From a virus (taxonomy: Duplodnaviria; Heunggongvirae; Uroviricota; Caudoviricetes), in the IMG/VR virus record IMGVR_UViG_3300028591_000140: a DNA stretch of 64,000 bases. The stretch is one strand, 5' to 3'. Shown piece after piece: positions 1,094 to 64,000 of this stretch. Numbering within the stretch: position 1 is the stretch's first letter; each line of letters starts with the position of its first letter. The notes under the pieces are model-generated. The model was not told the DNA's origin. It made no database searches and saw only the letters and a program-made list of their open reading frames with translations. The translations under genes and the position numbers were made by a program.

Positions 1094-3799
1094 TTAGTCG
1101 TTGATCTCACGATTCAGAGTTGAAACGGACACGCCAAGAGTGTCAGCCACTTCCGCATAGGTATAGCCTTTGCTAAGAAGAGTCTTTGCTCTTGCGACAG
1201 AAGCAGCACTCAGTGTTTTACTTGCACGAGGAGTTGCTCTTGCCTTCAAATCGTCGATATTTGTGAATCGGAGAATATCCATCAGCATATTGTCGCTGAT
1301 AGCACCAGCTTGAATGGCTGTCCATTCACGATCGCTAATTGATATTGCGATGTTATCCGGATTGTTCGGATTTCTGCTTCTGGTGCCAACAGCTTGACGG
1401 GCTCTGGCAATTTCCTGAGAGCGAATCTTTTTCTTATCGTCTTTATCGAGATTCGGGTTTGCATTGATACGAGCCGAACTCTTAACGCTCGCAATCAATT
1501 GAGCCTGACGCTCAAGAGGCGAATTTTTCTTTGCAATATTCAGTTTAGCAAGCAAAGACGCTCTTTCATTTGCATAAGCTTCTTTGGCAGAAGCATTCTG
1601 CTGAAGACGGCCAGTTCGGATCTGTTCCTTTCTGGCAGCATTACCAAGCGCCTTAAGCTTGTTGGCGTGTTCAGCGTAAATATCTTCTATGATGGTACCG
1701 GAAGAAAGATCATAAGCATTACCGCCGCGATTAAATGTTTCGGTCATCTTATCGCTCTTGATGGTCTTAGGCTCGTAGCTTCCATCTTTCTTCTTTGACA
1801 TCTTGCCAGTATTCCTAAATATCTTTTGGCCAGACAGGTAAAGCTGTTGCTCTTCCGGAGTCATTTTACTTAAGCTCCGAACTTCAGTTCTGTCAGGGAC
1901 ATACTCAGGAGACTTGGCTCTGGATATCAAGGTAGAAGCACCGCCATTGGCTTTGCCCTGATACTTTTTATTCAGCTCTTTGATGCCGTTATCCTTTTCG
2001 GATGCTCTCCAGTCAAGATTGTGCTTTTCAGCATCAATCACGACCATGGAGTGTTTAACGGCACGAGCAATTTCTTGCTCAGTAGCATTTCGAATCGTCA
2101 TATCGGTAATCAGATTCGAAACCTTCCCCATTTGCATCTGCTTATGGAATCCAGTCTCAGGACCGGTTTTCGGCATACCTTCATAAGCAGAATATCTTGT
2201 CTTGGGATCGAAGCCTTCCAGATCCTCGAGATATTTGGCAGTACGGATCTTGACACCCTTTGTCGGAATGACAGTTACCGTATCGCCATCAAAGTCTGCG
2301 CCGGAAAGCTGAGCGGCAACATGTGAATTGATGCCGACCGCGGTTTTGGCATTACCGAGAAGTCTTCGGCCTTCCTCATTATTGTTATTTACACGCAAAC
2401 GAGGCATCTCGAAAGGACCGGCGTGAGGATATCTTATTAGAACAACCTCTTCGCCATTTTCATAGTTCGGAGCATAGATCTCCGTGTCCTTAAGAGAACC
2501 GATCGGAAGAATGACGTGTGCAGCCTGACGAGGAAGAGCCGCAGCTTTCAGATGAATAGCGGCAGAATCGCAATCATCAGCAAAAGACTCAAGAAGCTTG
2601 CGCTTAATCGTCGGGTTTGTGAGAGCACAGATTTCATCGAATTCCTGTTTCTTCTCTTTGTAGGTAATATCAAGTTGCTTTTTGGCAAGCTGAGGCGGCT
2701 GCTTGGATAGAAACTGAGAGGCCAGATTCTTAGACCATTTCTGCCAGTCCTCATCCTCATTGACAATGTTGAGAGCTCCGCGCTGATCCTTAATAGATGC
2801 GCCGAAGGGATTCTCAGGATCATCCTTCATCTTCTTCAGAACATCCATCTTCGGAGTGCCTCTTGGTTTGTTGGTATTAAATATAATGTCAACCCCATCC
2901 GGCATCTCTTTCGGATCGCCATACATTGCCATGCCTTTTAGGTAGTGGGTTCCATCGACAGCGATACGAACTTGAGCATATCGACTTGCACCAATGTTCA
3001 GATCGGAAACTCCTTCACGAATCTCAATGACGCCGTCTTTGTCAATGCCACCATCTTCAGAATATCTTATTTTGACACGGTCAGAATCAATACTCTGAGG
3101 GGTTTGCATCTTCTTGACATAGTCACCATAGTCCTCAAACTTAACACCTTCGGGAGAAGAAATCTGATCACGATTCTTATAAACTTCTTCGTAAGGAACA
3201 TCGCCCTTTGTCAGAACGACAACATTGGTTTTCTGAGTCGGATCAGATGCTTGAGGGACTGAGATTCGATGGTACTTGTAGCCTTCCTGTTTCAGAAGCT
3301 CGGTAGCTGCTTTAAGCTGTTCTTTGCTCACATTGAGCTGAATGTTAACGCCTTCGCCAACATCCAAATATTTTCTCTTTTCAACCTGCTCTTTCAGCTC
3401 ATCAGCCAGAATCGTTGCACGATCCCGACGGACTTGAAACTCAGGCTTGAGATAGTTTCGAACAGTCGATTCAGGAATGCCAAGCTCTTTGGAGATAGCT
3501 GTTTTTGAATTACCGGCATCATAAAGAGTCTGCACACGACGGATCATATCCTTCTTCTGTTCATTAACAGCAAGAGTGTGCATAGCTCGATATTGACCGG
3601 TGCTCATCTTGAAAGCCTCAGCAATCTGTTTGTCAGTAAGACCTTGTTTCTTCAGATCATTAGCTCTCGAAAGAAAGTTTCGGTTTCTCTGAGGATTCTT
3701 ACCTGAACCCCATGGGTATCTGCCGGAATGGCGAGGAGTGCCATAATGCGAAGCATCTCTGTCAGAGTCCGGAAAATATCCAGAGTAACTCTTTTCCAT
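1094..3799 (-). CDS. 901-aa protein with beta-prime-like DPBB catalytic signature (RYPHAGP ... GADFDGDTVTV, compare NADFDGD of RNAP beta-prime). Candidate YonO-like or crAss-gp66-like single-subunit non-canonical RNA polymerase. Several HTH-like segments. N-terminus carries the shared HYG..GRYPWGSG motif
   Basis: SD AAGGAGCG 7 nt upstream of ATG. Motif spacing (R-x-P-x-x-H, about 32 aa, ADFDGD) mirrors bacterial and archaeal beta-prime. A TOPRIM (FDGD) primase is the less likely alternative. Confidence 0.45.
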   Translation of the reverse strand: MEKSYSGYFPDSDRDASHYGTPRHSGRYPWGSGKNPQRNRNFLSRANDLKKQGLTDKQIAEAFKMSTGQYRAMHTLAVNEQKKDMIRRVQTLYDAGNSKTAISKELGIPESTVRNYLKPEFQVRRDRATILADELKEQVEKRKYLDVGEGVNIQLNVSKEQLKAATELLKQEGYKYHRISVPQASDPTQKTNVVVLTKGDVPYEEVYKNRDQISSPEGVKFEDYGDYVKKMQTPQSIDSDRVKIRYSEDGGIDKDGVIEIREGVSDLNIGASRYAQVRIAVDGTHYLKGMAMYGDPKEMPDGVDIIFNTNKPRGTPKMDVLKKMKDDPENPFGASIKDQRGALNIVNEDEDWQKWSKNLASQFLSKQPPQLAKKQLDITYKEKKQEFDEICALTNPTIKRKLLESFADDCDSAAIHLKAAALPRQAAHVILPIGSLKDTEIYAPNYENGEEVVLIRYPHAGPFEMPRLRVNNNNEEGRRLLGNAKTAVGINSHVAAQLSGADFDGDTVTVIPTKGVKIRTAKYLEDLEGFDPKTRYSAYEGMPKTGPETGFHKQMQMGKVSNLITDMTIRNATEQEIARAVKHSMVVIDAEKHNLDWRASEKDNGIKELNKKYQGKANGGASTLISRAKSPEYVPDRTEVRSLSKMTPEEQQLYLSGQKIFRNTGKMSKKKDGSYEPKTIKSDKMTETFNRGGNAYDLSSGTIIEDIYAEHANKLKALGNAARKEQIRTGRLQQNASAKEAYANERASLLAKLNIAKKNSPLERQAQLIASVKSSARINANPNLDKDDKKKIRSQEIARARQAVGTRSRNPNNPDNIAISISDREWTAIQAGAISDNMLMDILRFTNIDDLKARATPRASKTLSAASVARAKTLLSKGYTYAEVADTLGVSVSTLNREIND

Positions 3800-14982: not shown

Positions 14983-15249
14983 TCAATCCCCACCCAATTT
15001 CCACCATGTAACAAATTCCTTAGCACATCCATTGCAAATATCAAAGGGGCTGTGAAAAGACTGAGAGCTGTAATCGCCAATTGCCAAAGTAGAAAGCGGT
15101 CTTCCATCAAATGCAATTCGTTCGCTATTATTTGGTTCATACAACTTCCCGCAGCGATCACACTTGTAGGCTTTACTCATTTTCGGTTCCTTTCTTGAAT
15201 ATCCTTCTGTATTCCCACTTGTCATCATCGACATAATCGCCAAATCCAT
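14983..15249 (-). CDS. Small zinc-ribbon protein
   Basis: CDRCG ... CNGC cysteine pairs. Confidence 0.4.
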   Translation of the reverse strand: MDLAIMSMMTSGNTEGYSRKEPKMSKAYKCDRCGKLYEPNNSERIAFDGRPLSTLAIGDYSSQSFHSPFDICNGCAKEFVTWWKLGGD

Positions 15250-16639
15250 AGTGGTCTGCGATCTGACCGGACTTGGCGTTCTCTTTCAGATTGTTCCACT
15301 GAAGTTCATTGAATCTGGAATTCTCAGGACTGTTGAACCAGTCAAGCGCCTTCTGAATATTGCGAGAAGTTGCACCAGTCCCTCTATATTTAGGATCAGT
15401 GGCAAGAGCAATGTCGGCTCGTCCATCACCAATATCCCAAATCTCGAGCATAGAGATTGGAATATCGCCGTCATACTCCAGGAAAGTCTTGGCTATATTG
15501 GAGGCTCGATCGGTTCTCGTCTCATCCGGAATCCACTTATCATCGCCAGAAGAAACTCCAAGTTCTTTCTGTTCAATTTCAGAGAGCGTACTTACAATTC
15601 TATTAACGTCATCAATATTTTTAAGTTCACGAACAACTCTTCGTCTATAGTATTCCCGCTCTTTACCTTTATCGGTTCTGGTCCCATCTTCATTTTGAAA
15701 CCTTCTAACGCCCCATTTCTGTCCTTTAATCCCATGGTGTTCGAGATGGTCATCCTTATTGGAAATATAATTCTTAAATCGATTCTCATTCCCAATGTTC
15801 ATCTCATCCAGATCAACGCCATACTCCTTAGCACGTTCCAGAATAGCCTCGGCCAATTCTTTTTCATACTTTGGATCAATATAATTGAAGAAGCGAATTG
15901 CGGATCTTACATGATCAGCATCAGGCATGGGGTATTTCTTGATCTCCGGGACGCCAAACTTCTTGGGATTGTCTTCCTCCATGCCTTCATCACTGTGTCC
16001 AATCTCCTCAGGCACATGCTGAATCTCCGTGGCAATCTCTTTTACACCATCAGGGGGCAGTGGGTCACGATCGTTGGGCTGGGGCTTGTCCTTCTCAGTC
16101 ACCAGAATTTTCTTCATCTCTTCGAGGATCTTCTCGACAGCCTTCCGGGTCTTCTTATGGAGCTGAATATAATCCTTATGCTCATCCCACCACTTGAAGA
16201 TCTCAGTCAGATCGCCTTTGCGCCAGCTAAAAGACCACCAGTCGCAGATCATTTCGAAAATATAAGCAAGGGGCATTTCGATGCATCTGCTCGGTTCGCC
16301 CTTATTGTCCGTGCTCATAACCCAATACTGCCAATGGTGTGGGTTACGATGCATGTGCATGAGAAAAGCCCGATGGAAATTATCAACCACCTCAGATGAA
16401 CGATTGTCCTTGCGAAGATAGAAATAATCATCATAGAAGTAGTATTCGTCCGGCTCAATTTTGGAACGGTCATGCTCAGCGACAAGTTTCTCAACATCAA
16501 AAATATCAAACTCATCAGCCTTATAGTTGGCCTTGATCCAATCCATCAGTCGAGGCATCAGATTGGTCTTCATCCACTGCCAACCCTTCTGAACAGCACC
16601 TACATGCTCATTCAGGTATTCATCGTATTCAATACTCAT
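15173..16639 (-). CDS. 488-aa protein carrying the shared HHGIKGQKWGVRRFQNEDG motif internally (about aa 305), flanked by unrelated domains
   Basis: Motif identical in core to those in 56658..57218, 57446..58798, 60260..60799 and 60882..61493. Confidence 0.55.
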   Translation of the reverse strand: MSIEYDEYLNEHVGAVQKGWQWMKTNLMPRLMDWIKANYKADEFDIFDVEKLVAEHDRSKIEPDEYYFYDDYFYLRKDNRSSEVVDNFHRAFLMHMHRNPHHWQYWVMSTDNKGEPSRCIEMPLAYIFEMICDWWSFSWRKGDLTEIFKWWDEHKDYIQLHKKTRKAVEKILEEMKKILVTEKDKPQPNDRDPLPPDGVKEIATEIQHVPEEIGHSDEGMEEDNPKKFGVPEIKKYPMPDADHVRSAIRFFNYIDPKYEKELAEAILERAKEYGVDLDEMNIGNENRFKNYISNKDDHLEHHGIKGQKWGVRRFQNEDGTRTDKGKEREYYRRRVVRELKNIDDVNRIVSTLSEIEQKELGVSSGDDKWIPDETRTDRASNIAKTFLEYDGDIPISMLEIWDIGDGRADIALATDPKYRGTGATSRNIQKALDWFNSPENSRFNELQWNNLKENAKSGQIADHYGFGDYVDDDKWEYRRIFKKGTENE

Positions 16640-22549: not shown

Positions 22550-22980
22550 TTTCTTCCCTCCTTAAAAAACCCAGCTAAGAGAATCTTCCAGTCATCCCAA
22601 TCAGGTTCCGCGGAAAAATAAAAAGGCGATTCACTAAACCATTTATCCTTCTTCTCCTCAGAAATATCATGGAAATCGTGGAAGACATCTGGCAAGGTCT
22701 TGGATTTTGGACAGGGAGGAGGCGGAACCCAGTCTTTGTCGTGAAGAGCATAATAAACAACATCGACCCCTTCTGCTAATTCTTCATTTGCATAGAGGCC
22801 CATGCCGGAAATATAATGTTCCTCGTCGATGGCTATCTTCAGAGGTTTCCATCTGGATTCTCCGAGATCGCAATCAGCTAATCCTGGACGAATATGAATG
22901 ATTCCATGGCGTTCGAGAGAACCATCAACTGGGTATTTGATTAATAAACGCGACTGGTCTAAAACTTTCATCTCGCTCAT
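22546..22980 (-). CDS. Hypothetical protein
   Basis: 144-aa ORF. Confidence 0.45.
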   Translation of the reverse strand: MSEMKVLDQSRLLIKYPVDGSLERHGIIHIRPGLADCDLGESRWKPLKIAIDEEHYISGMGLYANEELAEGVDVVYYALHDKDWVPPPPCPKSKTLPDVFHDFHDISEEKKDKWFSESPFYFSAEPDWDDWKILLAGFFKEGRN

Positions 22981-33533: not shown

Positions 33534-34061
33534 TCATAATTCTGATTTCCTTTCTTGTAATTTCTGCATGAGTTTATCGTATGACTTCATATAAAGTTCG
33601 TACTGGCACTCACAGTCATATTTAATCTCAATGATGGACTCATCGAGGGTTTGACATATTTGATTGTAAACGTTAAGAGGTAAGGGCTTGGACTTCTTTC
33701 TGGTAGCAATGCAAGTCCAATTATCGCCACCCTCAGCTTCAGGAACATAAGGACTATAAGCGTTAGTAGCTGCAAATATCACTTTTCCAGAATAGTTAGT
33801 CTCGATTGCCTTAAAAAATCTTGGCTGAGGATAAACATCATGTAAAACAATGACATCAGGATCTTTTTCGAAGATTTTCTGAACATAATGAAGGATCGTG
33901 GACTTACCGGTTGCAGGAGGACCATAGATCAGGTAATTACGCTTAAGCCCTTCCTCCCGATTGTGTAAGAGCGCACCTATAGCGCACTCGATTTGCATTC
34001 TCTCAGCATCCTTAAATAATGTGCCGAGGAGAAAATCCCAGGTGACTGATACTCTGCTCAT
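33534..34061 (-). CDS. 175-aa stand-alone paralog of the SF3 helicase P-loop region of the 6527..10549 protein
   Basis: ERMQIECAIGALL ... LIYGPPATGKSTILHYVQKIFE versus ERHKIEWAIGAVV ... LVFYGSAGTGKSTILNVIQELFE. Confidence 0.55.
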   Translation of the reverse strand: MSRVSVTWDFLLGTLFKDAERMQIECAIGALLHNREEGLKRNYLIYGPPATGKSTILHYVQKIFEKDPDVIVLHDVYPQPRFFKAIETNYSGKVIFAATNAYSPYVPEAEGGDNWTCIATRKKSKPLPLNVYNQICQTLDESIIEIKYDCECQYELYMKSYDKLMQKLQERKSEL

Positions 34062-36942: not shown

Positions 36943-37219
36943 CTTTTGTTAAAATTGCAGGAATATCAGGCCCATGAACAACTTCGAGATCTCCAAAGGC
37001 GAGTTGAAAATCACGGGTCAACATAGTGAGAAGCTCCATAGTGATTAATTCATGAGTCGCCGGATCAGTTTTATTCCAATGTTCCGTTCGACTCTTTTTA
37101 ACGAGATGAACTACATATCTATCATACTTTGAGAGTTTAACTTGAATATAATCCGGGCCAAAGGATTCCAAAGAAAGTTTAAAGCCAAGATTGGTCAGTT
37201 CAAACAGTTTCTCAAGCAT
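36923..37219 (-). CDS. Hypothetical small protein; tandem paralog of 36670..36942
   Basis: See the paralog entry. Confidence 0.45.
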   Translation of the reverse strand: MLEKLFELTNLGFKLSLESFGPDYIQVKLSKYDRYVVHLVKKSRTEHWNKTDPATHELITMELLTMLTRDFQLAFGDLEVVHGPDIPAILTKGGTLDV

Positions 37220-37883
37220 TCAGATTCCACTCCTTATGCTTCGTAATAAGTGTATCCTGATACTCAGGAGGCTGTTCATTCCAGAGGACGAGGGCAACCT
37301 CAACAATACGTCCTTCCGTCACCTTACCGTCTCCCCATTTAAGGCAATTCGCTTTGATGGAGAGTGTCTTAACTAAACCCTGCTGGATTAATGCTTTGGC
37401 ATTACGAATATGCTCATTTTCTTCGAGGAACCATCCATAGAAATATAATCCGCCAGGCCGATCTTCAAGTAAACCGCATCCGAGAACACAGTCGGAATTA
37501 TGGTTCCAAGTAACAGGCACTTTTCTCCCGTCTTGATTTGAAAATGCCCCTTTGACGATATTACAGTCTTTGAAACCATACATACCGTCAATCACGGCCC
37601 AGCCCTCAAAGTCGCATTCTCTATCAGGTACAGCATCCGGCCAAGCCCACATCCAATGCATAGTGATGAGCTTTTCCTCTTTTTCGAGTCGGATCAACTT
37701 CAAAGCCATCTTATATGCCTGGAGATCTGTATCACCTGTGGTATCAAGAATATGGCCATGGTAATGAGTGCGGAGATAATATGATTTAGGCTTATGCCAG
37801 CCGGTCGTATTTCCTCTCTCAAACTTGTCACAGCCGAGTTTCTGAAGTTCGCGCTTGATCCGCTTAATGAATTTTCGTTTCAT
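37212..37883 (-). CDS. Hypothetical protein with His-rich HYHGH cluster (possible metal-dependent hydrolase)
   Basis: 223-aa ORF; only a weak motif. Confidence 0.45.
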   Translation of the reverse strand: MKRKFIKRIKRELQKLGCDKFERGNTTGWHKPKSYYLRTHYHGHILDTTGDTDLQAYKMALKLIRLEKEEKLITMHWMWAWPDAVPDRECDFEGWAVIDGMYGFKDCNIVKGAFSNQDGRKVPVTWNHNSDCVLGCGLLEDRPGGLYFYGWFLEENEHIRNAKALIQQGLVKTLSIKANCLKWGDGKVTEGRIVEVALVLWNEQPPEYQDTLITKHKEWNLNA

Positions 37884-52550: not shown

Positions 52551-53780
52551 TTAGAGAGCTTTAATAATTTCATCAATCATATGAGCGACCTTGATGAAGT
52601 CTACCTCTTTGTACCCGCGAGTCGTCATGGCCGGCGTACCGATTCGGACACCAGAAGTTTGCATAGGAGATCTCTTTTCACCAGGCACACAATTTTTGTT
52701 CAGGGTGATACCGTGCTTATCACAGGCTTCCTGAACCATTTTGCCGGTGACATTGGGATGGGTCTCTGAGAAGTCCAGCAAAAAGAGATGGTTGTCCGTG
52801 CCGCCAGTGATGACATGATAACCCATATACATGAATTCATTTGCCATGGCCTCGGCATTACGCTTGACTTGATGAATATACTCACGATACTCAGGAGTCA
52901 GAGCTTCCTCGGCCGCAACCGCTTTGCCAGCAATGATGTTCTGAATAGGACCGCCCTGGCATCCGGGGAAGACTGCCGAGTCAACCTTTTTGGCAAGTTC
53001 CGGACGACAGAAAATCATGCCACCTCTTGGGCCACGAAGAGTCTTATGAGTCGTGGTGGTTACAATATCGGCGTAGCCAAAGGGCGTCGGATGATCTCCA
53101 GCAGCGATAAGACCCGCAATATGCGCCATATCTACCATGAAATATGGCCGATCTATACCATCAGGCCACGGCGAGAACGGAGGATTTTCATCTTCGGTCA
53201 CCATTGCAGCAGTGTCTTTGACGATGTGATAGATTTGCTCGAAGTTGATGATTCGAGAATAAGCGCTTGCCCCGGCGAGGACAAGTTTTGGCTTGTGATA
53301 ATAGATCTTCTGCTGGAGATCCTGATAGTCGATTCTTCCATTTTGATCTACGCCATAGAAGACCATGTTATAGAGTTTTCCGGAGAAGTTGACAGGGCTG
53401 CCGTGACTTAAATGCCCGCCGTTGTCCAAACTCATAGCCAGAATTGTATCGCCCGGCTTGAGGACAGACATATATGCGGCCATGTTTGCCTGGCTCCCGC
53501 TGTGAGGCTGCACGTTGACGTGATAGCTCGTGCAGAAGACTTCCTGCCACTTATCAGCACAATACTGCTCCAGCTTATCGTAGAATTCACAGCCGCCGTA
53601 GTACCGCCCCTTATTACCCGACTTATGATCAGCCGGGTAACCTTCGGTATATTTGTTCGTCAGAATGGATCCGACAGCTCTAAGAACATCATCGGAGACA
53701 AAGTTCTCACTGGCAATCAGTTCAATGGCATTTGCCTGACGGATTTTTTCACCCTCGATGAATTCGAATACTTTGGACAT
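52551..53780 (-). CDS. glyA: Serine hydroxymethyltransferase (GlyA) carrying an extra insertion
   Basis: IELIASENFVS ... PHSGSQAN ... TTTTHKTLRGPRGG SHMT blocks. About 20-aa insert (TEDENPPFSPWPDGIDRPYFM) before the conserved VDMAHIAGL segment. Confidence 0.8.
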   Translation of the reverse strand: MSKVFEFIEGEKIRQANAIELIASENFVSDDVLRAVGSILTNKYTEGYPADHKSGNKGRYYGGCEFYDKLEQYCADKWQEVFCTSYHVNVQPHSGSQANMAAYMSVLKPGDTILAMSLDNGGHLSHGSPVNFSGKLYNMVFYGVDQNGRIDYQDLQQKIYYHKPKLVLAGASAYSRIINFEQIYHIVKDTAAMVTEDENPPFSPWPDGIDRPYFMVDMAHIAGLIAAGDHPTPFGYADIVTTTTHKTLRGPRGGMIFCRPELAKKVDSAVFPGCQGGPIQNIIAGKAVAAEEALTPEYREYIHQVKRNAEAMANEFMYMGYHVITGGTDNHLFLLDFSETHPNVTGKMVQEACDKHGITLNKNCVPGEKRSPMQTSGVRIGTPAMTTRGYKEVDFIKVAHMIDEIIKAL

Positions 53781-56657: not shown

Positions 56658-57218
56658 TTAGAAACCGGCCTTATGAAGAAAGTCCTGAACAGCCCATTTA
56701 CCCGTGGTCGAAGCCCAGAATACAGCATCTTTTGCGGCAGTAGCTGCATACTGGCCGATCTTCTGATCCAGACCTGTCACATGTGCAACAGTATAAAGAG
56801 CCGCTGCACTGGCTGAAGCTCTTGCAATGTTGCCGGTAGCCGCATTGATCAGGCCACGACCAGTCTTCTCGACTTTATTGACTGTGTCTTTCCGCGTACG
56901 CTCAGCTCTTGCCTTAGCTGCATGTTTGCCCATGTCCTGAAGAGCGAGCTGACGTTCAAACTCTTCCTTGTACAGAGGATCCGTGCTCCGCTGCTTTACG
57001 GTCTCCCGAATGAGCTTGCGGCGAGTGCCAGCGCCTTCACCATAGAACATCTTGGCTCTGGCGTACTCTTTGGCGTCCTTCGCAGCAGCGCGTTTTGTCG
57101 AGTTCGGGATCTTGTGACCCAGTTCCTCAGGAGTTCGACGGACGCCCCATTTCATGCCCTTGATGCCAAAGTGAAGCATGTCCTCAAGTGTGTTGAATTC
57201 ATACCCATAGTAGTTCAT
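56658..57218 (-). CDS. Shared-motif protein 1 (N-terminal YGYEF ... HFGIKGMKWGVRR), 186 aa
   Basis: N-terminal motif shared by six proteins in this window; the rest is an A/K-rich low-complexity domain. Confidence 0.55.
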   Translation of the reverse strand: MNYYGYEFNTLEDMLHFGIKGMKWGVRRTPEELGHKIPNSTKRAAAKDAKEYARAKMFYGEGAGTRRKLIRETVKQRSTDPLYKEEFERQLALQDMGKHAAKARAERTRKDTVNKVEKTGRGLINAATGNIARASASAAALYTVAHVTGLDQKIGQYAATAAKDAVFWASTTGKWAVQDFLHKAGF

Positions 57219-57410
57219 ATGACAACCTCCTTAAAATATAAAAAGAAGAAAGAGCCTTGCCTAAGCTCCTTCTTCTCTTACAGTTAGTTGATGTGTACGC
57301 TGTCAAGAATGTACACGATCGGGAGAACAACCGTAGCGACTAAGGATATTAAAATCAAGTCTGCCACAGTGTCTCTAAGATCCTGCCTCTCTGACATATC
57401 TCCACCTCCT

Positions 57411-57437
57411 TCTATTAAGAAGGCTGTAAATCGTGCG
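57411..57437 (-). promoter_or_regulatory. Conserved promoter-like motif copy (variant)
   Basis: ctattaagaaggctgtaaatcgtgcgg. Confidence 0.4.
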
Positions 57438-57445
57438 GGCCTGCA

Positions 57446-58798
57446 TTACTGATTACGATAATAGTTTCGAACAATATCGTTGTAGGAAAGATTCGTATTC
57501 GGGTGTTCTTTTCTATAATCAGCAACAATTTTATCACGCTGTTTCGTCGTCATAGCAGAACTCGCCACTTTTGCGCCAACAGCCATGCCGCCATAAAGTG
57601 CAGCCTGGGGAGCAATTGCTTTCAGAGACACGTCCAGCATGGCGCTTTGAGCATGCTTATTGATGGTGTCTTGCCCAAGTTTGGTGACTTTATCAACAGA
57701 TACTTTTCCGGAATTCAGCACAATGACTGGAGTCTTAGTCATAAAGCCAGAATACTTCTTGTCATTAAAGTCCATAATAGCGTCATAGCCCTTATTCCGC
57801 ATTGTCTGATAAAAAGCTTGTGTAGTTTTTGCATTCTGGTCGGCAAGCGTAATATTAAAAGCTTTATACACAGCGGAGTCAACTTTACCAGATTTCAGAT
57901 GATTAAGAGCCTTATCAAGCGCTACTCTCTGAGCGCCAGTAGTACCCATTCTGGCCATATTAATTTCGTCCATCAAATCTTTCTTGAATCCACTATCTTT
58001 TGCCATCTCTGCGAGAGCACTGGTTGCAGACTTCGTGGAAGCCATCTTAAGCTGCTGCGTAGTATTCAGTGTTTTCTGATAAACAGATTTACCTTGTCCA
58101 GAAAGCTGCTGCGCATAATAGCCAGTATACTTTTTGACATCCATTTTGTTCTTCGAGAAAACAGCATAGAAGCCATCTCGTACAGAGGCTGAATCAGAGG
58201 TAGCAACACGAGACATAGATGTTCCAGTGTCAATAAGTTTATCAAAGTTATACTCTTTGTACTTTGCAGCGCCATATGCCACAGCCGCAGTTACTGCTAC
58301 AGCGCCAGCCACCTTGAGCATTTTCTCAGTTCGCTCTCGCTTATAAGCAGCGATCTCAGCCTCTTCTTGATTCATGCCCTTCTCTTTATACTGCTCAATC
58401 AGCTTCTCACGTCTGGCACTGATCTTGTCTTCTTTGTTCAGCTTTTCCTTAATACCTTCGTCTTTAAGATCCTCTTTGGCAAAAGTAGTTTCATTCTTAG
58501 CCTTAATAAGTTTCTTTTGCGCCTCTTCGTTATATACCATGCCACCAGCAGTTTTCCGATTATACTCACCTTTGGCTGCCTTTTCCAAAAGTTTGGCATT
58601 TTCGAGTCGAGCTTTTGCACCAGCCTTATCTACTGGATGATAGTTTTCGCCAGTGCCCTTACCGAAATAACGTTCTTTACCTGCTGCATTAAACGATCCA
58701 TCTTCATTCTGCCATCTACGAACGCCCCAATGCATTCCTTTAATGCCATGGTGAGTAATGTCGCTTTCGCAAGCAAATGCGTATCCATACATTTCCAT
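57446..58798 (-). CDS. Shared-motif protein 2 (MEMYGYAF ... HHGIKGMHWGVRRWQNEDGS), 450 aa
   Basis: Same N-terminal motif; large C-terminal domain of unknown function. Confidence 0.55.
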   Translation of the reverse strand: MEMYGYAFACESDITHHGIKGMHWGVRRWQNEDGSFNAAGKERYFGKGTGENYHPVDKAGAKARLENAKLLEKAAKGEYNRKTAGGMVYNEEAQKKLIKAKNETTFAKEDLKDEGIKEKLNKEDKISARREKLIEQYKEKGMNQEEAEIAAYKRERTEKMLKVAGAVAVTAAVAYGAAKYKEYNFDKLIDTGTSMSRVATSDSASVRDGFYAVFSKNKMDVKKYTGYYAQQLSGQGKSVYQKTLNTTQQLKMASTKSATSALAEMAKDSGFKKDLMDEINMARMGTTGAQRVALDKALNHLKSGKVDSAVYKAFNITLADQNAKTTQAFYQTMRNKGYDAIMDFNDKKYSGFMTKTPVIVLNSGKVSVDKVTKLGQDTINKHAQSAMLDVSLKAIAPQAALYGGMAVGAKVASSAMTTKQRDKIVADYRKEHPNTNLSYNDIVRNYYRNQ

Positions 58799-58865
58799 TT
58801 TGAAATCTCCTATAAAAAAAAGAAAAGCCGCTGTAGAGCGACCCTTCTTTTATGGTGAGATCTAT

Positions 58866-59078
58866 TTACTTCGATTTTTCAGCAAGAATTTGTTCGATAA
58901 GCTGCTTAGTAATTGCTATATCCGGATGCTTTTGCTGATACTCCTGAATAAGCTTCATCTGTTCATCAAAGAAACCCTCAGCAAGTCCGGGGCTACAATA
59001 CATCGGTTGAGTCTTTAGCTTGATGATAGGGCCTACAACGGGCAGATGTGTGAGAAGGAAATAGGTGGTTTTCTTCAT
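58866..59078 (-). CDS. Hypothetical small protein
   Basis: 70-aa ORF. Confidence 0.35.
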   Translation of the reverse strand: MKKTTYFLLTHLPVVGPIIKLKTQPMYCSPGLAEGFFDEQMKLIQEYQQKHPDIAITKQLIEQILAEKSK

Positions 59079-59869
59079 CTTAACTCCTCCAATCCAGTCT
59101 CAATTTCTTTATAGATCTTGAGTAAATATGGATCAAAGTATAGCTTGACCCGATGCTGCATCCAAGAAGGAACCCCATAGAAAGCTCCGGCAATACTACC
59201 AGTAATGCAGGCCAGAGTATCGCTGTCTCCACCAACACTCACGGCTGTTCGAATGGCATCCTCAAAACTCTCGGATTCAAAGAATGCTTCGAGTGCCTGA
59301 GGAACAGTATACTGGCAAGTTTCATTGAATTGATAGAAAGGCCGAATCTCATCTATCGTGAAGTCTAAATCGTAATAGGTCTTTGCGAGGTCGAGCAGTT
59401 CTTCTTTTGTCCAGCCATGCAAAGCACCCCAGACAAGACATGCCGTAGCTTCGGCGCCTTTTAGTCCTTCCGGATGATTGTGAGTTACACCAGTTACAAT
59501 AGCGCTGAGCTCTTTTACCTCGTCCATGGTAGCTGCAAAATATCCTACCAGACTTACACGCATCGCCGCACCGTTGCCATAGCTGTAATATGGCTGCGGA
59601 TTATCCGAGTACATCCATCTGTAAAAACGACCACCAAATCCACAAGCAGGATACGGACGACCTATCTCTTGCATCATCTCAACCGTATGCTTGGCCAAGT
59701 CCAAATCAGGATTCTTTCTCCAGTCCAGAAGAGCTTTGCCTACAGCCAGAGTCATGATGCTGTCATCAGTAATCGAACAGTTTCTTGCGAAAATATCGAA
59801 GTCTTTCGATCTATAGTTATTAAATTCGAACCGAGAACCTGCCACATCTCCAATAATTGCTCCGAGCAA
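59075..59869 (-). CDS. ADP-ribosylglycohydrolase (ARH/DraG family)
   Basis: MLGAIIGDVAGSRFEF N-terminus and SVGGDSDTLACITGSIAGA C-terminal block characteristic of the ARH family. Confidence 0.65.
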   Translation of the reverse strand: MLGAIIGDVAGSRFEFNNYRSKDFDIFARNCSITDDSIMTLAVGKALLDWRKNPDLDLAKHTVEMMQEIGRPYPACGFGGRFYRWMYSDNPQPYYSYGNGAAMRVSLVGYFAATMDEVKELSAIVTGVTHNHPEGLKGAEATACLVWGALHGWTKEELLDLAKTYYDLDFTIDEIRPFYQFNETCQYTVPQALEAFFESESFEDAIRTAVSVGGDSDTLACITGSIAGAFYGVPSWMQHRVKLYFDPYLLKIYKEIETGLEELR

Positions 59870-59913
59870 TATGATTCCTCCCTTAAATATACAGAAGATT
59901 TGCCAAATCTTCT

Positions 59914-60141
59914 TTAGTTAGATTTATACTGACACTGTGCTTTCTTTTCACTCAGATCGCTCAACTGATACGGTTTTGCTTTCGGATACTTCTGGCAGAA
60001 GCCCTTGTCGCATCCTTTTGCTAAAACCTTGCCATTGACCTCATAGTCTTTTTCGGCGTACTTACAACCTTCACACTGACTATAAGTCTCTCGTTTCCAA
60101 AGGACTTGCTCAGTGTTATACTTTGCGTTCTTTGAATCCAT
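59914..60141 (-). CDS. Small Cys-rich protein
   Basis: CEGC ... C ... C pattern. Confidence 0.35.
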   Translation of the reverse strand: MDSKNAKYNTEQVLWKRETYSQCEGCKYAEKDYEVNGKVLAKGCDKGFCQKYPKAKPYQLSDLSEKKAQCQYKSN

Positions 60142-60259
60142 GATCTACACCTCCTCGACCATTATACCACATGCTCAATCAGTTCTACAAATACATCTTT
60201 CACTTGGAACAGCGGTGGAATGGTCTCCGGCATCTAAAGGATAATTTGAAGTCCTCTTT

Positions 60260-60799
60260 TTAAACATAGACAAATCTTTGTTCATCTACGTCCCAAACAG
60301 TATGCGCGGCTTTGTCGGCTGCTCTTTCAGCACGCTTTTTGTTGATAGCCATCTTTGCTGCTACTCCTGCTGTATAAGCGACTTTAGCGGCAGACTTTGT
60401 GGCACGACCGTCATTGAATGCAAAGTCAATTGTCACGTCCAATGCGGCTTTTGTTAGCATTCGTTTGACAATTTGACGGCCCTTTTCTGCACGAACAGCA
60501 GCTTTATAGCTTTTACCTTTATCAAGCTTTTCTCGAATTCTTTTATAACCCTCATCACCAAATCGAATCTGATCTTTTGTTCGACGATTATACTGTTCCG
60601 CAGTAGTACGATGCCCTTCGCCATAAACTTCAGCAGTTTTTGATTCATTTCCATAGCGTCTCTGCCCCGCCGCAGTCAAAGAGCCATCTTCATTCTGAAA
60701 GCGTCGAACGCCCCATTTCATGCCCTTGATGCCATGGTGCTGGAGATCGGATTCGCATGTAAAAACATAACCGTAATAGTTCATTATTAGATCCTCCAA
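60260..60799 (-). CDS. Shared-motif protein 3 (MNYYGYVF ... HHGIKGMKWGVRRFQNEDGS), 179 aa
   Basis: Same N-terminal motif. Confidence 0.55.
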   Translation of the reverse strand: MEDLIMNYYGYVFTCESDLQHHGIKGMKWGVRRFQNEDGSLTAAGQRRYGNESKTAEVYGEGHRTTAEQYNRRTKDQIRFGDEGYKRIREKLDKGKSYKAAVRAEKGRQIVKRMLTKAALDVTIDFAFNDGRATKSAAKVAYTAGVAAKMAINKKRAERAADKAAHTVWDVDEQRFVYV

Positions 60800-60881
60800 T
60801 TAGTATGCTATTGGGTTTCTGGCATAATTACTTTTGCCCATCTTATACACATTTTCGATATAAAAGGACAATTCCTGCATA

Positions 60882-61493
60882 TTAAAAATCATACTTAGTA
60901 AGATCCATTTTCATGGAAGTTAAGCCGCCCCAAACATCGTCATCTTCAGAAATTTGTTTTCCCGCCACAAATCCAAGTTTTTCATAAATATGACGTGCAT
61001 CAGGAGAATCGCCAGGAACTTCGAGAGTCATGGTCTTGTATCCTCGTTCTTTGCATTCATGAGCAGCAGCCATCAAACTGGCAGTTGCATAGCCGTTTCC
61101 TCGCTGCTTCGAATTAATACCAAGCCAAACCACATTGACGGACGTAGGTGATTCTTGATATAATTCAAGGTCACCAATTCGCTTCTCTCCAATTTTGATT
61201 TCAAAATTTTTGGTATTCATCTGCTCTTTATAAACATGTTTAGATCCACGAGCAAGAATCTTGGCAAATGTACCTTTTTCAAGCTGTTCAATCGTGATCG
61301 GTGTCCCATCTTTGCCCTTGGCACTTAAAACTGACTTCTCATAATAATTGCTATTAAGAGTCTTTTCTCGTGGCGAACGATCTTCCGGGTCTAAAGGATA
61401 GGGAGGTCCGTTTCTCTTACCCCATTTCTGGCCCAAAATCCCATGGTGCTCGAGATCTTCTTCCCGAGTAAACTCGTATCCATACATTTCCAT
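60882..61493 (-). CDS. Shared-motif protein 4: N-terminal MEMYGYEF ... HHGILGQKWGKR motif fused to a GNAT acetyltransferase domain
   Basis: GNAT acetyl-CoA-binding block QRGNGYATASLMAAAHECKERGYKTMTLEV ... YEKLGF. Confidence 0.6.
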   Translation of the reverse strand: MEMYGYEFTREEDLEHHGILGQKWGKRNGPPYPLDPEDRSPREKTLNSNYYEKSVLSAKGKDGTPITIEQLEKGTFAKILARGSKHVYKEQMNTKNFEIKIGEKRIGDLELYQESPTSVNVVWLGINSKQRGNGYATASLMAAAHECKERGYKTMTLEVPGDSPDARHIYEKLGFVAGKQISEDDDVWGGLTSMKMDLTKYDF

Positions 61494-61557
61494 TTTGAAA
61501 TCTCCTTAAAAAAGAGAAGCTAACTGTGTTTTAGTCAACTTCTCTTTTAGTATGCTA

Positions 61558-61941
61558 TTAGATTCTCGGGGTGATTGCCTTGACCCATCCAAGGCAGGTT
61601 TTGTTCAGTATTGTCGTCTCCTCGAGAGTTCCAGTCAGCACAATCGCCGCTAAGGTGCCGGTTACGGTCAGACCGATCTTGGCGAGTCCGATGACTGCTT
61701 CCATCTTGGCCTGCTTCAGTCGATCGGCGGCCTCTTTCTCAGCCAGCGCCTGCTTTGCTTCGTCGAGCTTGCGCTTCAGCTCATTATTGAGGTCGTCGTC
61801 TCTGGCCTTGCAGTCCTCATGGAATGCATTCAGCAACTCGTGATAGTTCTTCAACGCATCCGTATATTCCTTATCCGCCGGATTGAGCTCCTGGATCTTC
61901 CCAAAGATCCTCTCCAATTCCTTAAGCATTTCCTCTTGCAT
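61558..61941 (-). CDS. Coiled-coil protein with C-terminal TM helix
   Basis: E/K-rich coiled coil followed by AVIGLAKIGLTVTGTLAAIVLTG. Confidence 0.45.
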   Translation of the reverse strand: MQEEMLKELERIFGKIQELNPADKEYTDALKNYHELLNAFHEDCKARDDDLNNELKRKLDEAKQALAEKEAADRLKQAKMEAVIGLAKIGLTVTGTLAAIVLTGTLEETTILNKTCLGWVKAITPRI

Positions 61942-61973
61942 AATTCTTACAATCCCCTTTCAAATAATAGGTT

Positions 61974-62000
61974 CTACTATAAGAGGTGCAATTCTTGCGG
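61974..62000 (-). promoter_or_regulatory. Conserved promoter-like motif copy
   Basis: ctactataagaggtgcaattcttgcgg. Confidence 0.5.
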
Positions 62001-62091
62001 GTTCATTTCATAAAAATAGAGGCCCTTCCAAAATGGAAAGACCTCTTGTAGATGCTATTACTTTATCACAGGTTTTGGACCCCTGCATACG

Positions 62092-62523
62092 TTAAATTCC
62101 TTTTCTTTGACTTAATAGCCAAAAGAATTTACGATAAGCGTCATAATACATATCCTTGCCACAAGGAATCTGGTGAATGGCTTGAAGAGTTACGAAAGGA
62201 ATCCCTTCAGTTACTGCCAGCAAGAGATAATGCTTCAATTCAGAAGATGCATCGGTTGCCGCCTGTTCAACAAGTGTAATGGCTCGCTGAAGATCAACTC
62301 TTGACTCGGCCAATCTCGCTGTAGGATCAGATGGCTCAGAACCGTGCACTGTCCCAAGTTTCACGGCTTCCATTTTGATTTCAAGCTCAGACAGCATCTT
62401 TTTCCACTCAGGGTATTGCAGACAAAAGTGCTTAAGCTCGTAGTACCGATGCTTTGAAATCCAATACCTATTTTTACAAGACAATTCAGGTTTTAACTCC
62501 GGCATACTTATCGCTCCTTTCAT
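62092..62523 (-). CDS. Hypothetical protein (possible ArpU/RinA-like phage transcription regulator; weak)
   Basis: Size and position next to the HTH and integrase only. Confidence 0.3.
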   Translation of the reverse strand: MKGAISMPELKPELSCKNRYWISKHRYYELKHFCLQYPEWKKMLSELEIKMEAVKLGTVHGSEPSDPTARLAESRVDLQRAITLVEQAATDASSELKHYLLLAVTEGIPFVTLQAIHQIPCGKDMYYDAYRKFFWLLSQRKGI

Positions 62524-62792
62524 AATCCACAGATGTAACGCAAAATCTCATTTGAACAATTCGCCAGTCGCAATGCATTCGTGATGACACCGAATGGCGC
62601 TTTCTCGAATGCTTGAACTTGGTGACGGTATCTCCAGAGAGTGGAGCAATTGATTCCTAATTGAAATGCGAGATCTGATGTGGTATAATGATTGGCGCGA
62701 AGGTATTCATTTACAACTGCATCAAAACGATCCATCCGTTTTGAGAGTCGATCAGTCCGTTTAGCCTCTTCGGTTAATAAGACCTTGGGCAT
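62520..62792 (-). CDS. HTH DNA-binding regulator (Cro/excisionase-like), divergent from the integrase
   Basis: TTSDLAFQLGINCSTLWRY helix-turn-helix; inverted repeat TTGTGATG ... TTATCACAA lies in the divergent intergenic region 62793-62980. Confidence 0.5.
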   Translation of the reverse strand: MPKVLLTEEAKRTDRLSKRMDRFDAVVNEYLRANHYTTSDLAFQLGINCSTLWRYRHQVQAFEKAPFGVITNALRLANCSNEILRYICGL

Positions 62793-62980
62793 TGTTCATT
62801 ATTCCTTTCTGTTTGTGATGCCGGCTCGAATATGGTTTATCACAACGAATGCAGAAAGGCAATAAGAAAAGTTACAGAATGGTTGCAGGGGCGCACGAAT
62901 GGTTTCATTTCCGCACGTATCTGTACCAAACTTTTCAAACGAAATTTGTTCAAGTGTTACAAAAATCGAGGAGGATAGCA

Positions 62981-63991
62981 ATGAAAGTACCGACCCCTAA
63001 AAGGCTCCCATCCGGATCATGGCGCATCCAATTGATGGTGAATGGACACAAATATAGCATCACAGATAAGGACCCGAAAGTCTGCAAGCAACGAGCAAAA
63101 GAGATCTATGCCGGTATTGAGCAAGAGAAACGGACAAGTCTAACCGTTGGGCAAGCAATAGACAAATATATCGAAACCCAAGAGGGGACTCTTTCTCCAT
63201 CAACTCTGAGCGTCTACAAAAGGTATCGCCGAAATTATCTCCAGCTTTTAATGCCCTGTGCGGTTAACGACCTCACTCCAGAGCTCGTCCAATTGGCGAT
63301 CAGCAAAGACTCTCAGCAAGGAAAAAGTCCAAAGACTATCCGAAATGCCTATGGACTATTGACCGCTACTCTCAAACTTTACCGTCCAAAATTCAAGCCA
63401 GAAAGCAAACTGCCCCAGAAGGAAGTACATGAAATCGTAATTCCAACTGAGACGGAGATGAAACAAATTTGGGCTGAAGCAAAAGGGACAAAATCTGAGA
63501 TCCCAATTTTGCTTGCATCCTGGCTTGGACTTCGTATGTCTGAGGTTCGTGGACTTAAATACGCAGACTTCAAAGGGAACCAAGTCCACATTCAGAGAGC
63601 TGTCGTCCGTACAAGTGATGGAGATGTTGAGAAAAAGACGAAAAGTTACTCTGGAGATCGCTGGATTACCTGTCCAAAATACATTCTCGATTTACTTGCA
63701 GCTCAAGAGAATAAGGGCGAGTATGTGTGCAGGTATTCGGAGTCCACGATCTACAATGGGTTTGTCCGAGTCTGCGAGAGAGCTGGTATCCAGCATTACC
63801 GTTTTCATGATTTACGCCATTTCGCTGCATCTGAAGCTCATTCTCTGGGGATCCCCGACAAATATCAGATGAAACGAATGGGGCACAAGACGGATAACAT
63901 GCTTAAGAATGTATACCAGCATACAATCCGAGACAAAGAAGACGCCTTCGCAACTTTAATAGATGATCATATGACTGAACTTCTGGCTTAA
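62981..63991 (+). CDS. int: Tyrosine recombinase/integrase
   Basis: C-terminal HDLRHFAAS ... MGHKTDNMLKNVYQHT (R..HxxR..Y catalytic pattern). AGGAGG SD before ATG at 62981. The only credible plus-strand gene. Confidence 0.8.
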   Translation: MKVPTPKRLPSGSWRIQLMVNGHKYSITDKDPKVCKQRAKEIYAGIEQEKRTSLTVGQAIDKYIETQEGTLSPSTLSVYKRYRRNYLQLLMPCAVNDLTPELVQLAISKDSQQGKSPKTIRNAYGLLTATLKLYRPKFKPESKLPQKEVHEIVIPTETEMKQIWAEAKGTKSEIPILLASWLGLRMSEVRGLKYADFKGNQVHIQRAVVRTSDGDVEKKTKSYSGDRWITCPKYILDLLAAQENKGEYVCRYSESTIYNGFVRVCERAGIQHYRFHDLRHFAASEAHSLGIPDKYQMKRMGHKTDNMLKNVYQHTIRDKEDAFATLIDDHMTELLA

Positions 63992-64000
63992 TTTCACACG

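Follow-up and report, generated by a model that had tools for sequence, protein, structure and literature searches.

A short recurrent leader peptide (DUF7211) on phage proteins with exchangeable cargo: an uncharacterised family of a probable virion-targeting-leader or polymorphic-effector type

The capsid-targeting sequence (CTS) of phage T4 is a peptide of about 10 residues that is cleaved by gp21, and the T4 internal proteins are basic. Virion RNA polymerases (RNAPs) have been described in podovirus-like phages whose hosts are Gram-negative bacteria and Bacteroidetes, namely the N4 virion RNAP and gp66 of crAss-like phages, a two-barrel enzyme of the YonO/RdRP-like type. Encapsulin cargo-loading peptides, which are usually C-terminal, bind inside an HK97-fold shell, on its lumenal face, and suffice for the loading of unrelated enzymes. 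The CTS is carried by the T4 internal proteins IPI-III and by Alt (PMC9503650). The MuF polymorphic toxins are encoded by temperate phages of gut Firmicutes and are presumed to be packaged in the head and injected (Jamet et al., 2017, PMC5576092; Zhang et al., 2012, PMC3482391). The polyvalent proteins of phages and conjugative elements consist of multiple modules and are predicted to be delivered together with DNA (Iyer et al., 2017, PMC5512222). In this work, we analyse a short motif, the tag, that recurs on proteins encoded by a stretch of 64,000 nucleotides of the virus record IMGVR_UViG_3300028591_000140 (the window) and on proteins of related phages. The tag defines an uncharacterised and very large family, probably of the virion-targeting-leader or phage-borne polymorphic-effector type.

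The preliminary description of the window placed the motif in six proteins. All six open reading frames (ORFs) exist at the positions given there and are located on the minus strand, but the canonical motif, [DE]-x-L-x-H-x-G-[IV]-x-G-[MQ]-[KR]-W-G, was found in five of them, while the sixth, an RNAP-like protein (1094..3799), has a distinct variant. The alignment of the five exhibits invariant H, G, G, W, and G residues. The regular expression H.G[IVLTA].G[MQLIK][KRHQ]WG gives five matches in the window and none in 200 codon shuffles. A profile hidden Markov model (HMM) that was built from 16 tags identified the same five proteins only, with E-values from 5e-17 to 3e-23, and found no cryptic copy of the tag in the window. 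As previously described, the tag is N-terminal in the proteins of 186 residues (56658..57218), 450 residues (57446..58798), 179 residues (60260..60799), and 203 residues (60882..61493), where the invariant His is residue 16-21 and YGYxF is present upstream of the motif in all four. The tag is internal in the 488-residue protein (15173..16639), at residues 296-313.

The tag corresponds to Pfam PF23847 (DUF7211), a family that spans 25 positions, has no known function, and has a gathering cutoff of 27 bits. The DUF7211 scores of 56658-57218 (36.7 bits), 57446-58798 (30.4 bits), 60260-60799 (39.6 bits), and 15173-16639 (28.9 bits) are above that cutoff. The GNAT fusion 60882-61493 scores 19.4 bits, which is below the cutoff, and is identified by our own tag HMM with an E-value of 4.8e-17. 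Its leader belongs to the subtype ...GILGQKWGKRNGPPYPL; the leader subtype GILGQKWGxRNGPPYPL was also found in two metagenome contigs (L087 and L135), likewise below the DUF7211 cutoff. The only Pfam match of the motif is to this DUF, with no match to an enzymatic, cell-wall-binding, or secretion-signal family. Its recurrence is not explained by a known enzymatic or wall-binding domain, and the cell-wall-binding and secretion-signal readings were rejected because Pfam support for them is absent. No paper in the literature that was searched mentions DUF7211 or the motif string, the motif is not described in reviews and papers of the Aravind group, and no solved structure among the PDB chains contains it.

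At E<=0.001, the exhaustive profile search identified 44,271 representative clusters. The tag is the basis of matches to at least 13 PHROG families, 12 of which are annotated as "unknown function". The tag is located within the first 40 residues in 228/244 and 196/210 proteins. The best-scoring representatives have two to five tags at a median spacing of 224 residues and are in-frame concatenations of tag-cargo modules, some with GNAT or deamidase domains; multi-tag proteins (P0347-P0360) reach 1569 residues. ORFs that consist of the leader only (37-54 residues) were also found on long contigs (P0003, P0014, P0054, P0067, P0084, and P0092). Together, the leader-only ORFs and the multi-tag proteins suggest frequent fission and fusion of tag-cargo modules. 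The tag is a portable module and not part of one fold because it also occurs internally and in two to five copies at module-sized spacing. The proteins with two to five tags and up to 1,569 residues combine several effector domains as polyvalent proteins do. Unlike in polyvalent proteins, each module of the tag family is preceded by its own copy of the leader, and separate small genes are usual. Neither the motif nor these phages are mentioned in the description of polyvalent proteins (Iyer et al., 2017).

The regions behind the tag fall into 91 clusters among 242 tagged proteins. A Pfam census of 150 non-redundant tagged proteins, drawn from the ORFs of the fetched loci, gave DUF7211 in 148, Gln_amidase (a papain-fold toxin) in eight, and GNAT in two; Ntox50, DUF6883, 2H/LigT, DUF5662, and DUF6582 occur once each, and the remainder are unmatched. 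The best 120 tag-profile matches were all proteins or fragments of 37-81 residues. As a class, the tagged proteins are very basic (12% K and 7% R). In the window, the GNAT domain of 60882..61493 is located behind the tag as described earlier (Pfam Acetyltransf_1, E 6.5e-9). The claim that the downstream domains are unrelated to one another is correct for their sequences: only the tag aligns between 60882-61493 and 15173-16639, but both proteins bear GNAT-superfamily domains.

The loci that were collected with the tag profile (79 viral and 74 genome loci, 153 independent loci) were mapped with TerL, portal, protease-capsid, connector, HNH, and RNAP proteins as references. Their genes recur in the order RNAP ... 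HNH - connector - tag(n) - TerL - tag(n) - portal - protease/capsid. The HNH/connector-TerL-portal interval contains 364 of the 433 tagged ORFs (84%), 60 more are at most 4 kb from a packaging gene, and nine are elsewhere; 98% of the tagged genes sampled are in or next to the terminase-portal interval. Complete intervals contain one to eight tagged genes (median three). In Streptomyces phage DrGrey, gp06, gp08, gp09, gp10, and gp11 bear HYGVKGMKWGVRK; gp08-gp11 are located between TerL and the portal gene, and gp06 is immediately upstream of TerL. In ReqiPepy6, gp013 and all genes between TerL and portal (gp015-gp021) are tagged. The tag family is limited to phages of Firmicutes and Actinobacteria, and the hosts named in the genome records are mostly gut Clostridia. 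The cargo domains of the window, taken without the tag, also have homologs in connector-TerL-portal slots elsewhere (13/16 for the 450-residue protein).

It is unlikely that the tagged gene upstream of TerL is the small terminase: there are up to eight paralogs, some have toxin domains, and one, orf7 of Lactococcus phage 1706, is annotated as a virion protein. Gene order points to a conserved small ORF (phrog_4259), located upstream of HNH, as the TerS candidate. Two tagged proteins of these relatives are observations in their own right. ReqiPepy6 gp013 (L004 10681-12276) is a 2H/LigT phosphoesterase fused to an internal tag, directly upstream of TerL, and it could be injected to degrade cyclic-nucleotide immune signals. 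DrGrey gp10 (L001 7293-7985) is tagged and has an HExxH (zincin-like) motif, without a Pfam match.

Compared with MuF toxins, the tag family also has a conserved N-terminal module, encoded in the packaging module by the portal or terminase gene (the 364 ORFs above and two genes just outside the window), and variable C-terminal toxin domains (Gln_amidase, Ntox50, ADP-ribosyltransferase, GNAT, and 2H); an adjacent gene may be an immunity gene, as in MuF systems. However, no MuF domain (PF04233, PF06152, or related) was found among the Pfam matches of the six window proteins and the 150 related tagged proteins, so the tag family does not belong to MuF. The leader is a disordered peptide of 15-40 residues, whereas the MuF domain is folded and has about 250 residues. 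The tagged genes are upstream of the portal gene, whereas MuF is downstream, and there are one to eight per genome. In the related phages, the portal gene is directly followed by a Peptidase_S78-Phage_capsid fusion, and no MuF gene follows the portal gene in the related loci. The tag is also found on non-toxic small basic proteins, and the five copies in the window are outside the packaging module, again unlike MuF toxins.

Annotation of virion proteins is available for Lactococcus phage 1706. In its original record (EU081845.1), which comes from the laboratory that characterised the phage, orf6, 7, 11, 12, 17, 71, and 75 are labelled "structural protein" and orf13 "major structural protein", while most other ORFs are labelled "unknown" or "putative ...". 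The orf7 product has two copies of the tag (DUF7211 41.8 bits, above the cutoff), and orf75 is the RNAP-like protein with the variant tag. No further tag bearers were found in 1706 beyond these two. The label of orf75 most likely reflects detection in particles because inference alone would not make a structural protein of an RNAP homolog that has its gene at the far genome end. The curators of ReqiPepy6 repeat the structural label, including in a note on gp106 (RNAP). Like the T4 CTS, the tag is a short N-terminal peptide on otherwise unrelated and mostly basic proteins that include an ADP-ribosyltransferase, and some cargo genes are away from the head-gene cluster in both systems. The enzymatic cargo of the tag is of toxin-like kinds that act in the cytoplasm, which parallels T4 Alt and the MuF toxins packaged in heads. 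The T4 CTS proteins are packed in the head and injected, whereas packaging of the tagged proteins is suggested here by gene position and the 1706 labels. The two leaders differ in that they have no sequence similarity, the tag occurs in siphoviruses of Gram-positive hosts with an S78-capsid fusion, and it is also found internally and in tandem.

Models of the 186-residue and the 450-residue proteins were predicted with AlphaFold2 (AF2) and family alignments. The 186-residue protein exhibits a helical-bundle core with a predicted local distance difference test (pLDDT) value of about 90. The 450-residue protein exhibits a disordered tag, long helices that include a hydrophobic Ala/Gly-rich helix (residues ~159-178), an alpha/beta domain (residues 187-373) with pLDDT above 90, and a C-terminal helix. 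In both models the invariant tag is without secondary structure, and its pLDDT is below 50. The idea that the tag might be an independent fold did not hold, since the tag is disordered beside well-folded cargo; in these models it behaves as expected for a linear motif that takes on order upon binding a partner. No functional assignment came from fold searches. In logic only, the tag is like the encapsulin peptides: it is short, contains Gly, is hydrophobic plus basic, is terminal, and is disordered alone. Unlike them, it is N-terminal with another consensus, and its docking on a capsid would be by analogy.

Exchange of cargo behind the leader was found by comparison with L087, a 97-kb contig with a 95%-identical copy of the 186-residue protein, whose locus is collinear with the window at 85-90% DNA identity. 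One protein of 362 residues with an ADPrib_exo_Tox domain (an ADP-ribosyltransferase, ART) is encoded in L087 where the window has the tagged GNAT gene and the 179-residue tagged gene. The leader of this ART nearly matches that of the window GNAT protein (MEMYGYEFARENDLNHHGILGQKWGKRNGPPYPL against MEMYGYEFTREEDLEHHGILGQKWGKRNGPPYPL). In blastn, window 61375-64000 corresponds to L087 5039-7663 with 90.5% identity; homology stops some 40 codons after the start of the tagged gene and begins again at 60206. The variable cassette of the window (60207..61374, minus strand) consists of the GNAT domain and the whole 179-residue tagged gene, with the ART domain in its place in L087. A second segment (57478..59084, minus strand) is an insertion relative to L087 and consists of a 70-residue ORF (58866-59078) and the 450-residue tagged gene. 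The leader and ribosome-binding site (RBS) DNA of the 450-residue gene (58743-58818) is 82% identical to that of the L087 ART leader, and the leader DNA, including a T-rich stretch and the RBS, is conserved among the 450-residue gene, the GNAT gene, and the L087 ART gene. This conservation therefore offers a homology block for recombination. A 37-residue ORF at the insertion point in L087 was considered as a leader remnant and ruled out, being a small hydrophobic peptide.

In L087, the tagged ART gene is followed by a 75-residue ORF and then by an ADP-ribosylglycohydrolase (ARH) gene, and the same two genes follow the GNAT and 179-residue genes in the window. There, the Cys-rich 75-residue ORF (59914..60141, minus strand) lies between the tagged effector and the ARH (59075..59869, minus strand; Pfam ADP_ribosyl_GH, E 6e-38). 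Both are untagged and conserved in both phages; the tag HMM found no tag on the ARH. The 75-residue ORF is also conserved with L164, a contig described below, and gave no match in Pfam and PHROG searches. The preliminary description had counted the ARH among packaged anti-defence cargo. Since it is untagged and adjoins the tagged ART in L087, it reads instead as an antidote to the ART that was retained in the window after the ART had been replaced, and from this gene arrangement we consider an antidote more likely than cargo. ART and ARH pairs such as Tre1/Tri1 and DraT/DraG are known.

Toxin domains (Gln_amidase, Ntox50, and ART) behind a conserved N-terminal leader, with the ARH as a possible adjacent immunity gene and a family confined to phages of Firmicutes and Actinobacteria, could also be read as a system for export or release of polymorphic toxins against competitors, with the leader as a signal like the LXG/WXG leaders of type VII secretion in the same phyla. 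We regard this as most improbable. The leader has no similarity to Sec, Tat, LXG, or WXG100 leaders in Pfam, most tagged proteins are without a toxin domain, and the genes are in the head-assembly module and not beside secretion genes. Export also leaves the structural labels of 1706 without an explanation. Furthermore, a related variant heads an RNA polymerase of 900 residues with DNA-binding helix-turn-helix (HTH) domains, which has no reason to be exported.

That polymerase, encoded by 1094..3799 on the minus strand, is a homolog of YonO/RdRP-like single-subunit RNA polymerases with HTH domains (phrog_4291, E=0). Its Pfam RdRP match is weak (E 0.0038, residues 493-590), and it contains the catalytic DFDGD motif in GADFDGDTV, which agrees with the DxDGD core of RdRP/YonO-like enzymes. 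The protein begins with ...DRDASHYGTPRHSGRYPWGSG. The variant tag DASHYGTPRHSGRYPWGSG is located at residues 15-33 (nucleotides 3701-3757), with HYGTPRHSGRYPWGSG at residues 18-33. The consensus of the variant, [DE][DE]xLxHYG[VMT][KP]R[RH]SGRYPWGSG, is N-terminal in all homologs examined (55/55), and the signature GRYP[WLYF]GSG was found on RNAPs or RNAP fragments only, in 55/55 cases. About 250 genomes of phages from Arthrobacter, Gordonia, Streptomyces, Rhodococcus, Lactococcus (1706 group), and Faecalibacterium encode a homolog of the RNAP-like protein at their extreme right end. A supercluster of phages with this protein as a signature has been reported, without mention of the motif (preprint 10.1101/842583). 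The solved structures gave no informative match for the RNAP-like protein or the 450-residue protein.

As with known virion RNAPs, this is a phage-encoded YonO/RdRP-like polymerase with DxDGD, and its 1706 ortholog is annotated as a structural protein. That annotation would imply injection and host-independent early transcription. The differences are that these phages are siphoviruses of Firmicutes and Actinobacteria and that the enzyme has about 900 residues, terminal HTH domains, and an N-terminal peptide like a cargo leader. One further ORF touches on this protein. An untagged 144-residue ORF (22546-22980, minus strand) has in its first 76 residues 36% identity (E 6e-19) to residues 231-307 of that protein, and by this similarity the ORF is a free-standing paralog of one RNAP domain.

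We propose that the leader is a docking peptide which loads cargo into procapsids for injection with the DNA, and we judge this to be probable. The core of the modular leader is about 15 residues, and in Clostridia phages the conserved unit reaches about 35-40 residues ([DE]xLxHxG[IV]xGMKWGVRR[YF]QNxDGSLTxAGKxRY). Unstructured alone, the leader would dock during head assembly on a conserved procapsid component, with the portal, the connector, and the scaffold part of the protease-capsid fusion protein as candidates. The fused cargo would thereby enter the virion and be delivered into the next host cell with the DNA. The proposed cargo comprises small basic proteins of the internal or ejection type, many of which have a hydrophobic helix, toxins and enzymes that modify the host (GNAT, ADP-ribosyltransferase, glutamine deamidase, Ntox50, and 2H phosphoesterase), and possibly, with a diverged tag, the YonO-like RNA polymerase of the phage. 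Cargo cassettes would recombine behind the leader into a polymorphic set, because the leader and the RBS are conserved at the DNA level. The window phage has the standard tagged genes beside the terminase gene and extra ones relocated to two accessory regions, 56.6-61.5 kb and 15.2-16.6 kb. The ARH, being untagged, would remain in the cell that produces the phage and counteract a tagged ART there. A docking peptide is the simplest account because it explains the position in the head module, the labels of 1706, a portable, disordered, and invariant N-terminal peptide, polymorphic cargo that acts in the cytoplasm and is swapped, and an untagged neighbour that resembles an antidote. The earlier comparison with virion-targeting tags gains support from the packaging-interval position, the 1706 labels, and the predicted disorder, but not from the clusters inside the window, which are outside the morphogenesis module. 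The comparison with leaders of polymorphic effectors gains support from the toxin domains and the exchange of ART for GNAT behind the leader. For both comparisons this support is substantial but indirect.

The position in the morphogenesis module is fixed, the 186-residue family is kept from Clostridia to Streptomyces phages, about 130 of the 150 cargo regions have no enzymatic domain and are basic, helical, and typically 150-250 residues long, and 31% of the tagged proteins have a hydrophobic helix, as in ejection proteins that insert into membranes. These features would also fit a fast-diverging paralogous family of head-internal or ejection (pilot) proteins, in which the motif is an assembly or oligomerisation element, the enzymatic fusions are add-ons, and the window copies are duplicates of structural genes. 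We consider such a family unlikely to be the explanation, since one leader is found on unrelated folded enzymes (GNAT, ART, deamidase, 2H, and Ntox50), cassettes are swapped exactly behind it, the cargo forms as many as 91 clusters, and the tag is disordered and separable in the models. It also overlaps with docking and injection in that both place the proteins in the virion.

Another function of the motif in the head might be as a recognition or cleavage signal for the prohead serine protease (the capsid-fused Peptidase_S78), marking processing junctions at head maturation. The spacing of tags in the multi-tag proteins is polyprotein-like, T4 capsid-targeting sequences are removed by the prohead protease, and all these phages encode an S78-capsid fusion, to which the window adds a stand-alone S78 paralog. 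However, the invariant block of 15-40 residues is far larger than typical prohead-protease sites, and cleavage at an N-terminal tag located at residue 5-20 would free only a tiny peptide. A cleavage signal is thus quite improbable as the main function, and it would be compatible with virion targeting rather than an alternative to it. The stand-alone paralog (37212-37883, minus strand) is a 223-residue Peptidase_S78-like prohead protease encoded in the replication and accessory arm, far from the head genes. It shares 36-38% identity with the protease portion of the 1706, ReqiPepy6, and DrGrey protease-capsid fusions.

Several observations weigh against loading of the tagged proteins into virions. 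The presence of tagged proteins in virions rests on the GenBank annotation of 1706 and not of the window phage, and two 1706 proteins without the tag (gp62 and gp71) have the structural label as well, so not every virion protein needs the tag. A hydrophobic segment like a transmembrane helix was found in 31% of the tagged proteins compared with 5% of core morphogenesis proteins, and the tagged proteins that have it could be membrane proteins acting in the producing cell. The five canonical copies of the window are outside the morphogenesis module, and terminator-like hairpins separate the units of the window cluster. The main tagged cluster comes after the integrase and HTH genes, where a long leftward gene array begins. 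It could be expressed early or in lysogens, which would be bad timing for packaging. The RNAP variant has neither a Pfam DUF7211 match (E<=0.1) nor a match to the canonical HMM (E<=10), and hhalign joins it to the tag over the first half only (acidic-L-x-H-Y-G-hydrophobic; 90%, E 1.6e-6, 16 columns). Co-variation of RNAP-tag and canonical-tag prefixes in the same genome is negative, with a mean of -0.19 compared with 0.37 across genomes, and 4071 of 5000 permutations reached the observed value; the prefixes that resemble each other in ReqiPepy6 and in the window phage therefore do not reflect a general signal. Thus, of the diverged motif that had been described on the RNAP-like protein, the first half aligns with the tag and the second half does not. 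The N-terminus of the RNAP is a distinct, RNAP-specific peptide, since Pfam and the HMM are blind to it and hhalign aligns the first half only; to judge from that half, it plausibly shares ancestry or function with the tag.

The location of the main cluster, directly after the integrase and HTH regulators and together with the ARH, is typical of accessory or moron genes. A similar four-tag cluster far from the packaging module was found in another element of about 90 kb (L135 and L155, which are one contig), so the accessory clusters of the window are unusual but not unique. The tag might on this basis be unrelated to the virion and bind a cytoplasmic host or phage factor (the phage RNAP, the transcription or translation machinery, or a chaperone), localising or regulating take-over, defence, or counter-defence effectors made after infection or in lysogens; the occurrence of internal as well as N-terminal tags would agree with this. 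We give such a role little credence because it fails to explain the 98% of sampled tagged genes in or next to the terminase-portal interval and the structural labels of 1706 orf7 and orf75, and because the window cargo domains without tags have homologs in packaging modules elsewhere.

A broader form of the docking-peptide proposal is that the DUF7211 leader is a general, programmable cargo-loading peptide for HK97-fold heads, docking on the lumenal scaffold or capsid or on the portal and sufficient for any protein. The whole supercluster would then have an injected arsenal of tens of thousands of tagged proteins, including a YonO-type RNAP that makes early transcription independent of the host, and tagged toxins (ART) would have untagged antidotes (ARH) as partners, produced later from the injected genome, so that the shut-down of the host would be timed and reversible. 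We regard this broader form as doubtful. If the docking of the leader is true, a role would be given to a large blank family (the representative clusters above and the genes of about 150 actinophages labelled "hypothetical protein"), and phages of Clostridia, lactococci, and Actinobacteria would inject variable enzymes and toxins and possibly their own RNA polymerase. So far, the main documented cases of injected arsenals are T4-, P1-, N4-, and crAss-like phages. A portable tag of 15-40 residues would also be a handle to load designed proteins into phages that target Gram-positive gut bacteria, and it would give a simple sequence rule to find injected counter-defence or take-over proteins in metagenomes.

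The genes of the window are nearly all on the minus strand. They encode a DNA polymerase (6527-10549), a helicase, a ligase, a methyltransferase, and HTH/sigma-like regulators, with an integrase (62849-63991) on the plus strand; no structural genes were found in the window. Two contigs from one metagenome sample extend it at its two ends. Past position 1, L007 has a small ORF, HNH, a tagged 169-residue gene, the connector gene (Phage_connect_2), a tagged 165-residue gene, and TerL. Two more tagged genes thus flank the connector gene beside TerL, just outside the window. Past the integrase, L164 has holin and endolysin genes. The integrase as a prophage-host junction was ruled out because L164 runs on into this phage lysis cassette. 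An identical copy of the 450-residue protein is encoded on a 98.9-kb contig. Taken together, the phages that share the RNAP family, the L007 and L164 extensions, and the 98.9-kb contig indicate by their sequences that the window belongs to a temperate member of about 99 kb of the supercluster of Lactococcus phage 1706 and actinophages, with at least seven canonical tags and the RNAP variant. Exact-match look-ups of the integrase and of a 143-residue ORF gave no match. An EcsC-like gene of 217 residues (L007 16179-16832) lies on the opposite strand between a tagged gene and TerL, which is unusual in an otherwise unidirectional module.

The accessory arm has further genes. At a place that corresponds to about 48.5-49.5 kb of the window, L087 encodes a 353-residue AcrVA2-like protein (18621-19682; PF26125, an anti-CRISPR family), where the window differs; the arm appears to be a counter-defence island because of this protein. 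The 409-residue protein encoded by 52551-53780 (minus strand) matches the PHROG 'methyltransferase' family phrog_9968 (E 1e-141), and its orthologs in L164 and L087 have a Pfam SHMT (serine hydroxymethyltransferase) match, so it may perform one-carbon chemistry for DNA or nucleotide modification. A 175-residue ORF (33534-34061, minus strand) has 46% identity over 59 residues to the 1340-residue DNA polymerase and is possibly a duplicated fragment or an accessory domain of it.

The tagged genes of the window are all on the minus strand. The GNAT leader consists of about codons 1-45 (61359-61493), with the invariant His codon at 61446-61448 and the subtype ...HHGILGQKWGKRNGPPYPL. The 179-residue protein has a basic helical cargo and matches PHROG via the tag only. 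Its probable start is the ATG at 60784, which gives 174 residues as called in L164. The 488-residue composite consists of DUF5662, DUF6582, the internal tag (nucleotides 15701-15754), and a GNAT-like domain according to Pfam. Three parts of it match separate tagged genes in L018, L031, and L025 that are in or adjoin packaging modules, and from these matches it appears that modules which other phages encode as separate tagged genes are fused in this protein.

The 186-residue protein belongs to the most conserved cargo family (phrog_6291, E 8e-50), which is conserved from Clostridia phages to Streptomyces phages. Homologs were found in about 150 isolated actinophage genomes, where every one is labelled hypothetical and the gene is immediately before the portal gene; DrGrey gp11 and ReqiPepy6 gp021 are members. 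A segment of 74 nucleotides in this gene (57013-57086, coding AKDAKEYARAKMFYGEGAGTRRK) has 88% DNA identity to Streptomyces phages (DrGrey gp11 and relatives). This identity persists across host phyla and base composition (the GC content of the window is 44%), and it could be due to extreme constraint or recent transfer.

Directly upstream of the tagged cluster is a gene for a 127-residue coiled-coil protein (61558-61941, minus strand) with a strong hydrophobic segment (Kyte-Doolittle, KD, 1.88). It is conserved in L087 and L164 and gave weak scaffold-like profile matches only. Strong terminator-like hairpins with T-runs and stems of 13-17 bp were found on the minus strand at 58818-58851 and 57241-57279, directly upstream of the leaders of the 450-residue and the 186-residue proteins respectively, and at 62018-62046, after the 143-residue ORF. 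The tagged cluster may consist of several transcription units, or these hairpins may mark cassette boundaries.

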